Sequence record: PP328843.1 | DNA length: 64,000 nt | Origin: Escherichia phage 215Ecol030PP | Strand: one strand, 5' to 3' | Part shown: one piece after another, positions 46,795 to 48,988 of the stretch | Layout of the letters: every line of letters starts with the position of its first letter | How positions within the stretch are numbered: the stretch's first letter is position 1 | The notes under the pieces: generated by a model | Database searches by the model: none | What the model was told of the DNA's origin: nothing | Seen by the model: the letters and a program-made list of their open reading frames with translations, nothing else | Translations under genes and position numbers: made by a program

Positions 46795-47056
46795 CATTAT
46801 GTTCAGATAAGGTCGTTAATCTTATCCCGGAATTATATCCAGCTGCATGTCACCATGCAGAGCAGACTATATCTCCAACTTGTTAAAGCAAGTTGTCTAT
46901 CGTTTCGAGTCACTTGACCCTACTCCCTAAAGGGATAGTCGTTAGGCATTTAGGTAGAACCAAAGTCCTACAATTTAGCACGGGATTGTCTACTAGAGAG
47001 GTTCCCCGTTTAGATAGATTACAAGTATAAGTCACCTTATACTCAGGCCTCAATTA
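46795..47056 (-). other. group I self-splicing intron in td, 262 nt, no endonuclease ORF
   Basis: Starts UAAUUGAGGCCUGAGUAUAAGG... right after exon-1 GGU and ends ...CUGAACAUAAUG, as recalled for the T4 td intron; only a 16-nt loop where T4 carries I-TevI. Confidence 0.8.
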
Positions 47057-47746
47057 ACCCAAGAAAACATCTACTGAGCGTTGATACCACTGCAAATCCA
47101 AATAGCCATTACGCACATTAAACTGATAGAACATATGACAAGGCGGTAATGCCATATATTTAAGTTCAGCTGGATTCCATGCAGAAACAATTTGACGCCT
47201 ATCATTTGGCAATTTTTTAATACGATCAATAACTTCTACAATTTGGTCTACACCGCCAAAATCACGCCATTGTTTTCCATAAATTGGACCAAGTTCACCG
47301 CTATGGTATCCTAAATCTTTTGCTTGATTTTCGTAATTTTCATCCCAGACTGTTTTGCCTTGAATTAATGAATCATGCTGAATTTGGTCTACACCGCCAA
47401 AATCACGCCATTGTTTTCCATAAATTGGACCAAGTTCACCGCTATGGTATCCTAAATCTTTTGCTTGATTTTCGTAATTTTCATCCCAGACTGTTTTGCC
47501 TTGAATTAATGAATCATGCTGAATTAATCGTAAATCATTTACGTTAGTACTTCCTGATAAGAACCAAAGTAGCTCAGCAATGCAAGCTTTCCAAGCGAGC
47601 TTCTTAGTTGTTACCGCAGGAAAACCTTTAGTTAAATCCCAGCGTAATTTAGTACCGAACAAAGCAATTGTTCCTGTGCCTGTTCGGTCATCGGTTTCAT
47701 AGCCATTTTCAAAAATGTCTTTAATTAAATCTTGGTATTGTTTCAT
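47057..47746 (-). CDS. td: thymidylate synthase, exon 1, carrying an in-frame 47-codon tandem duplication
   Basis: 230 codons; IQHDSLIQGKTVWDENYENQAKDLGYHSGELGPIYGKQWRDFGGVDQ occurs twice in tandem. Confidence 0.88.
47241..47522 (-). repeat. exact 141-bp tandem duplication (2 copies) inside td exon 1
   Basis: Copy 1 at 47241-47381 and copy 2 at 47382-47522 read identical by eye; short AATT-type microhomology at the junction. Confidence 0.85.
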
Positions 47747-47790
47747 TTAGTACCTTATATAAATTATAATACATTTTATGAAGCTAATAA

Positions 47791-48138
47791 TCAATACGGT
47801 TTAGCATCAAATTTTCTTTCGATTTCAGGAGTGAAATATAATTCTTTACCGCGTTTGGAAAAGCGACCAATAATATGATAATTATTCTCATCAAACGTAA
47901 TATTACCAATATCCATAGCTTTCAACCAAATATCGATATTTCTATCCAGCTTTATGTCAAAATTCCAATACGGAGAACTATTACCGAAAATACTGCAAGC
48001 AGATTCAGTGAAACAACTGCTATAAATCTTGTCTTTAGGAACTACTAATTGATAGACACCTTTAATAAACTGAGGACCCTGCCACTTTGGCTGTTTCGCG
48101 TCTTCTTCTAATAGAATAGGGTAATAATTAAAGTTCAT
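47791..48138 (-). CDS. hypothetical protein inserted between frd and td
   Basis: ORF track begins at GTG 48150; ATG at 48138 gives 115 aa (MNFNYYPILLEEDAKQPK...). Confidence 0.55.
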   Translation of the reverse strand: MNFNYYPILLEEDAKQPKWQGPQFIKGVYQLVVPKDKIYSSCFTESACSIFGNSSPYWNFDIKLDRNIDIWLKAMDIGNITFDENNYHIIGRFSKRGKELYFTPEIERKFDAKPY

Positions 48139-48158
48139 ATTTTCCGCCACGCGTTATT

Positions 48159-48988
<830 letters not shown>

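Follow-up and report, generated by a model that had tools for sequence, protein, structure and literature searches.

The 64,000-nt stretch of Escherichia phage 215Ecol030PP analyzed here (sequence record PP328843.1; hereafter the window) carries a minus-strand open reading frame (ORF) between frd, encoding dihydrofolate reductase, and td, encoding thymidylate synthase. We refer to this ORF (47791..48138, 115 codons), whose position and extent were confirmed from the ORF list and the sequence, as gene X. It runs from an ATG start, beginning MNFNYYPILLEEDAKQPKWQGPQF, to a TGA stop, and initiation at an alternative GTG lying four codons further upstream (48150) would lengthen the product to 119 aa. 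The comparative and structural data indicate that X is probably a genuine accessory gene that enterobacterial T4-like phages have inherited vertically, that T4 has probably lost it, and that its product probably has a binding role. The initial annotation had presented the ORF as extra, giving frd and td as overlapping in T4 with nothing between them. The T4 arrangement is as described: in NC_000866, td (143235..145112) and frd (145109..145690) share 4 nt in an ATGA overlap and no gene intervenes. Taking T4 as the norm is nevertheless misleading, as X is the majority state in Tequatrovirus, the genus of the window; over 20 kb, the window and its closest relatives in the database are ~96% identical.

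Judged by sequence comparison, X is a genuine gene. The encoded protein matched the PHROG 1928 profile over its full length (E=8.2e-36; residues 4-111 aligned with positions 2-125 of the 126 in the profile). A tblastn search detected it in 580 phage records, in 579 of which the match covered 80% or more of the protein. Six synonymous differences and one non-synonymous difference separate the window copy from that of T6, giving 99% protein identity, with E12 in the window and K12 in T6 as the sole residue difference. Relative to the copy in Shigella phage Shf125875 (Mosigvirus), there were 31 synonymous (Sd) and 8 non-synonymous (Nd) differences, corresponding to a synonymous divergence (dS) of 0.79 and a non-synonymous divergence (dN) of 0.029. 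Pairwise dN/dS ratios were 0.04-0.09, and the gaps in an alignment of 19 family sequences came only in multiples of three. These data show that the X protein is under strong purifying selection.

X is the orthologue of RB32ORF229c. The orthologues in T6, RB3, RB5, RB32, PST, phiD1 and hundreds of other Tequatrovirus and Mosigvirus phages are 95-100% identical to X at the protein level and have the same position, the same 20-nt spacer after frd and the same 9-bp flanking repeat as the window, with nothing substantial differing. Across all tblastn matches, protein identity was at least 90% in 362 records and below 60% in 218, the latter group belonging to other enterobacterial genera of the T4-like type and comprising phages of Klebsiella, Kosakonia, Pectobacterium, Erwinia, Salmonella, Citrobacter and Enterobacter. 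A megablast search with the junction region returned 358 records covering at least 80% of the query, including T6, PST and ECML-134. The comparison with T4, T2, T6 and the RB phages that the initial annotation had proposed placed X in T6, in RB3 (also X-type at the junction), in RB5 and RB32 (matched in the protein search) and in a partial T2 record, whose junction is of X-type length, and not in T4.

The arrangement seen in T4 is the exception. The T4-type collapsed junction, counted as records matched by a 34-nt probe specific for it, was present in only 32 records, about half of which derive from T4 itself, including partial sequences; the remaining phages include RB55, RB59, vB_EcoM_112, HY03 and SG1. 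A third allele, Y, is an unrelated basic 68-aa gene (PHROG 9550; ~135 records at an identity of at least 90%) that lies between frd and td in D5505, IME537, ACG-C40, fPS-65 and others, with its start and stop overlapping the neighboring genes. The records with Y in the slot belong to Tequatrovirus and Dhakavirus, and the gene was located at 1648-1854 of locus L004 (phage D5505), 3670-3879 of L010 and 2726-2854 of L007. Beyond the T4-like phages, relatives of Y at ~42% identity were also seen in the phAPEC8-like group (Phapecoctavirus).

The association of X with frd and td extends well beyond Tequatrovirus. Frd, Td, Y and the X-family profile were searched for in annotated regions, in two metagenomic contigs and in 14 loci from IMG/VR, which was scanned with the X alignment. 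In 25 of the 25 loci carrying an X-family gene, which represent eight named genera and unclassified contigs, this gene lies between frd and td. X stands alone in the Tequatrovirus, Mosigvirus and Jiaodavirus loci; two family members are found in tandem in the Marfavirus, Kagamiyamavirus, Roskildevirus, Kanagawavirus and PM2 loci as well as on unclassified contigs, and some tandem loci add Y, with the order frd-X-X2-Y-td in L010, L019 and L020. Together, these comparisons show that the slot between frd and td holds X, X and X2, X, X2 and Y, Y alone, or nothing. In most genera, the stop and start codons of X overlap with those of frd and of the next gene. The space between X and td that is occupied by X2, and sometimes by Y, in other genera is a 44-nt spacer in the window.

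X2, the second gene of the tandem, is a true paralogue of X, as indicated by profile E-values of 1e-10 to 1e-19 (5e-7 for the copy of Erwinia phage Cronus) and by matches to PHROG 1928 (8e-33 for an L010-type phage and 4e-16 for Cronus). Six residues, Q16, W19, G27, G91, K95 and G97, are invariant and common to X and X2, and X2 differs from X by an insertion of ~20 residues in its first loop. We detected X2 in 127 phage records, none of them from Tequatrovirus, and no paralogue of X was found elsewhere within the window. In Cronus (L006 1559-2297), the order seems to be reversed, with an X2-like gene of 144 aa followed by an X-like gene of 103 aa and then td.

The sequence of the junction points to how X could have been lost from T4. 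In the window, the two copies of a 9-bp direct repeat, TAAATGAAA, lie on either side of X: the first copy (48157..48165, minus strand) spans the frd stop and the second (47741..47749, minus strand), 416 bp away, spans the td start codon. The coding strand of the window reads ...GTATA[TAAATGAAA]TAACGCG...(X)...GGTAC[TAAATGAAA]CAATACC..., with the repeat set in brackets, and that of T4 reads ...GTATA[TAAATGAAA]CAATACC..., which is the exact product of repeat collapse; the junction spans 717 bp in X-type phages versus 301 bp in T4. The T4 junction could likewise arise from the Y allele via the 5-bp repeat AATGA. On grounds of parsimony, the ATGA overlap of T4 is likely the derived state, generated by deletion between the 9-bp repeats. 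Deletion is favored because the X family holds the slot in genera whose Frd is only ~45% identical, and because the empty allele is rare. X and the 20-nt spacer are moreover shared with a Mosigvirus phage at a dS of ~0.8, and T4 and the X-bearing Tequatrovirus phages are 95-97% identical in their flanks; the X-bearing arrangement therefore predates the split between T4 and T6.

The structure prediction suggested in the initial annotation was carried out with AlphaFold2 on the 19-sequence family alignment and gave a confident model (mean predicted local distance difference test score, pLDDT, 89.9; predicted template modeling score, pTM, 0.83). X is predicted with high confidence to be a compact, mostly-β domain of ~105 residues, with strands at 6-12, 27-34, 38-40, 48-50 and 62-64, a helix at 68-77 and further strands at 80-82, 86-96 and 99-104 (assigned by DSSP). 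The order of the elements, β1-β2-β3-helix-β4-β5, is OB-like and as such compatible with an OB-fold; extra short strands are present, and we did not classify the protein as an OB-fold. The known systems set beside X include OB-fold and other small β-barrel binding domains (SSB, RPA14/32, Stn1-Ten1, Teb1, S1 and RuvA domain I). A fold search with the model revealed no significant structural similarity to solved OB-folds or to any solved structure, with OB heterodimers such as RPA14/32 appearing only among the weak matches. In the model, the conserved positions lie in the first loop, which would be L12 (Q16 and W19), at the start of β2 (G27 and Y29) and in the β4-β5 hairpin (G91, F93, K95 and G97), and no Asp, Glu, His or Cys is among the invariant residues of the family.

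The homology searches of the BLASTP and HHpred type that the initial annotation had also proposed were productive in part, as they recovered homologues and PHROG 1928 and no named family or solved structure. The window protein had no match in Pfam up to E=10. Across the 19 family members, Pfam gave no match to GIY-YIG, HNH or LAGLIDADG, the sole nuclease-named match being a chance-level one to RNAse_A_bac for one member (E=0.14). Together with the lack of a catalytic set among the invariant residues, this bears out the earlier remark that the ORF has no recognizable nuclease motif. There was also no match to X in NCBIfam, no family match in PADLOC up to E=10, and none below E=0.36 in a sequence-profile search of the PDB. 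All homologues recovered by word-indexed searches and exhaustive HMMER were standalone proteins of 99-148 aa on T4-like contigs, and these searches found no fusion to other domains, no named homologue and no cellular homologue. An 838-aa match (P0019) is a TPR repeat protein and was rejected as spurious.

Based on the predicted structure and the invariant residues, X would be a small barrel that acts by binding a partner and not by catalysis; this role is suggested because no catalytic set is found among the invariant residues. The partner would most likely be a nucleic acid or else one of the proteins that make up the nucleotide-precursor machinery. X, Frd and Td are probably translated from one early polycistronic mRNA, an early or middle transcript, because X has no promoter motif of its own and because its start and stop codons overlap those of frd and of the next gene in most genera. 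No MotA box or late promoter was found adjoining X on the coding strand, and the sigma-70-like matches near X are weak and occur at about the background rate. The gene is probably also dispensable under laboratory conditions, because T4 and the Y-type phages lack it.

The spacers on either side of X were largely as first described. The gap between the frd stop and the X start (48139..48158, minus strand) is 20 nt long, as claimed, and contains a weak Shine-Dalgarno-like sequence, GGCGGA; 16 of its 20 positions are shared with the homologous spacer of a Mosigvirus phage. A spacer between the X stop and the td ATG (47747..47790, minus strand) is likewise present, with a length of 44 nt instead of the 45 nt given initially, and contains one weak sigma-70-like match as well as, ahead of the td start, a Shine-Dalgarno-like AAGG. 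We also noted a two-codon mini-ORF, ATG AAA TAA (48155-48163, minus strand), which overlaps the frd stop in an ATGA arrangement and whose start is formed by the first copy of the 9-bp repeat. It resembles the start of td (ATG AAA CAA), and its counterpart in a Mosigvirus phage is ATG AAA TAG. The mini-ORF may be what is left of an overlapping start, or it may serve for translational re-initiation.

Several points weigh against the proposed history and role of X. The direction of the event in T4 rests on parsimony, and a 9-bp flanking repeat would also be expected from a target-site duplication. In Tequatrovirus, X is set off from frd by the 20-nt spacer, whereas the genes overlap in other genera, and between Tequatrovirus and the L010-type phages X is 63% identical and frd 46%. 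The spacer and the better conservation of X than of frd could therefore reflect an old lateral transfer of X into Tequatrovirus or a replacement within the slot. As for the binding role, the family isoelectric point is only neutral to mildly basic (6.6-9.4), which speaks only weakly for nucleic-acid binding. Finally, gene order is conserved throughout the T4-like phages, so the position between frd and td is no proof of a functional link.

X could instead be a host-range or counter-defence gene that inhibits or evades an immunity or exclusion system of some hosts. Such a role would explain the presence, absence and swap with Y of the gene among close relatives, with three slot alleles in one genus, and would fit with the tandem paralogues and their lineage-specific retention, with a small standalone phage-restricted protein for which no cellular homologues were found, and with an early-gene region that is rich in small accessory ORFs. 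However, dN/dS ratios of 0.04-0.09 and orthologues that are 95-100% identical over hundreds of isolates with Escherichia, Shigella, Yersinia and Salmonella as hosts are not the pattern of an arms race. X is not acidic and hence no DNA mimic. It also had no match in PADLOC, though PADLOC covers defence and not anti-defence proteins, and text searches by gene name, PHROG, frd-td position and counter-defence found no paper mentioning X. We consider this explanation possible but unlikely.

Another possibility, a narrower form of the favored reading to which we give somewhat less credence, is that X, as a heterodimer with X2 where both exist, bridges or regulates Frd and Td in the deoxynucleoside triphosphate (dNTP)-synthesizing complex, or binds the frd-td mRNA and tunes the translation of td. 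This would be in keeping with an unbroken synteny at frd and td, maintained even in phages whose Frd is ~45% identical, with the start/stop overlaps with frd, X2 and td in most genera, with a dN/dS at the level of core genes, and with the OB-like fold, the paired paralogues recalling OB heterodimers such as RPA14/32, which are among the weak matches. The dNTP-synthesizing complex was defined in T4. Against this proposal, T4 is without X, as are ~30% of the Tequatrovirus records, and the T4-like gene order is conserved regardless of function. More speculatively, and with no greater confidence than in the previous proposal, X and X2 could represent an unrecognized OB-like small β-barrel family that became tied to the thymidylate module before the enterobacterial T4-like genera diverged and whose homo- or heterodimers serve as adaptors for, or regulators of, Frd and Td or their mRNA. 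If so, the deletion of X by T4 would explain why the X/X2 family has never been studied.

It is very improbable that X is a selfish mobile insertion, or the remnant of one, of the free-standing homing-endonuclease type, placed at the td start with a 9-bp target duplication. The T-even free-standing homing endonucleases (the GIY-YIG Seg and HNH Mob proteins) resemble X in being small, intergenic and polymorphic genes in a homing-rich region with a short direct repeat. The repeat around X, its presence/absence polymorphism among close relatives and the homing elements nearby (mobE in T4 and, in relatives, I-TevI within the td intron) would fit with such an origin, and the BASEL records FriedrichMiescher and AndreasVesalius label X a 'putative homing endonuclease'. 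Unlike Seg and Mob, which are about twice the size of the 115-aa X protein, X has no nuclease motif by Pfam, no invariant Asp, Glu, His or Cys that could be catalytic, and a predicted fold that matches no nuclease, which largely refutes an identity as homing endonuclease. In addition, X occupies the same syntenic slot in every genus examined, with stop and start codons that overlap, as is typical of resident genes, and strong purifying selection has held over a dS of ~0.8. The suggestion that X is a chance, unexpressed open frame in a non-coding spacer, for which the weak GGCGGA match and the lack of a promoter belonging to X itself might be cited, is refuted by the comparative data and can be set aside, given the conservation in 580 records, the gaps that come exclusively in multiples of three, the 31 to 8 ratio of synonymous to non-synonymous differences, the confidently predicted fold and the invariant residues common to X and its paralogues.

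We favor the reading of X as a resident accessory gene. The upstream neighbor, frd (48159..48743, minus strand; 194 aa), is mosaic. Its product is 86-87% identical to those of T6, D5505 and FriedrichMiescher (87% to T4 at the DNA level) and 96-99% identical to those of RB32, Shf125875 and one IMG/VR contig; the adjoining X is 99% identical to that of T6. Upstream of frd, to ~49400, the T6 ORF RB51ORF237 is apparently lacking in the window. The downstream neighbor, td exon 1 (47057..47746, minus strand), contains a perfect 141-bp tandem duplication at 47240-47525 (2.0 copies, 100% match). The duplication is in frame and adds 47 residues (QIQHDSLIQG...FGGVD occurring twice), such that the spliced Td would have 333 aa versus 286. 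The best 15 of 666 matched phage records align to the duplicated region in three pieces, consistent with its absence there. The duplication may have arisen very recently, may mark a laboratory mutant or may be an artefact of the assembly. The td group I intron (46795-47056, minus strand) is only 262 nt long and is without the I-TevI ORF; the T4 intron aligns to it at both ends, 5´ and 3´, and ~754 nt including the endonuclease gene are missing. Rfam RF00028 matched over the full model at 65.5 bits (46843-47066). Neither the duplication nor the ORF-less intron was found in the best-matching records. Both features beside X are thus as the initial annotation had reported. The recombination hotspot that it had seen in this junction holds in a weak sense only: there are three alleles in one genus and a mosaic frd, but nothing ties the td duplication or the intron to X.

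As a discovery, X carries little weight. The gene is already annotated, with no function assigned, in hundreds of genomes, its flanking repeat is on record in GenBank, where the RB32 entry notes that RB32ORF229c is 'flanked by 9 bp repeat', and the finding of an ORF at this position is ordinary and not new. Labels for X differ across OR125554, MN580668, MZ501066, MZ501050 and OQ721914. Three labels in the databases, 'putative glucose-1-phosphate adenylyltransferase', 'putative homing endonuclease' and 'virion structural protein [STEP3]', have no support from the profile searches or the predicted fold. X and X2 are strongly constrained, confidently folded, phage-restricted and always wedged between two well-studied enzymes, which makes them a cheap candidate for a functional test, and phages that naturally lack X (T4), carry X only (T6) or carry Y only (D5505) exist as controls. 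For the T4-like phages more broadly, T4 is atypical at this junction, and the textbook ATGA overlap of frd and td looks like a deletion scar and not an ancestral design.
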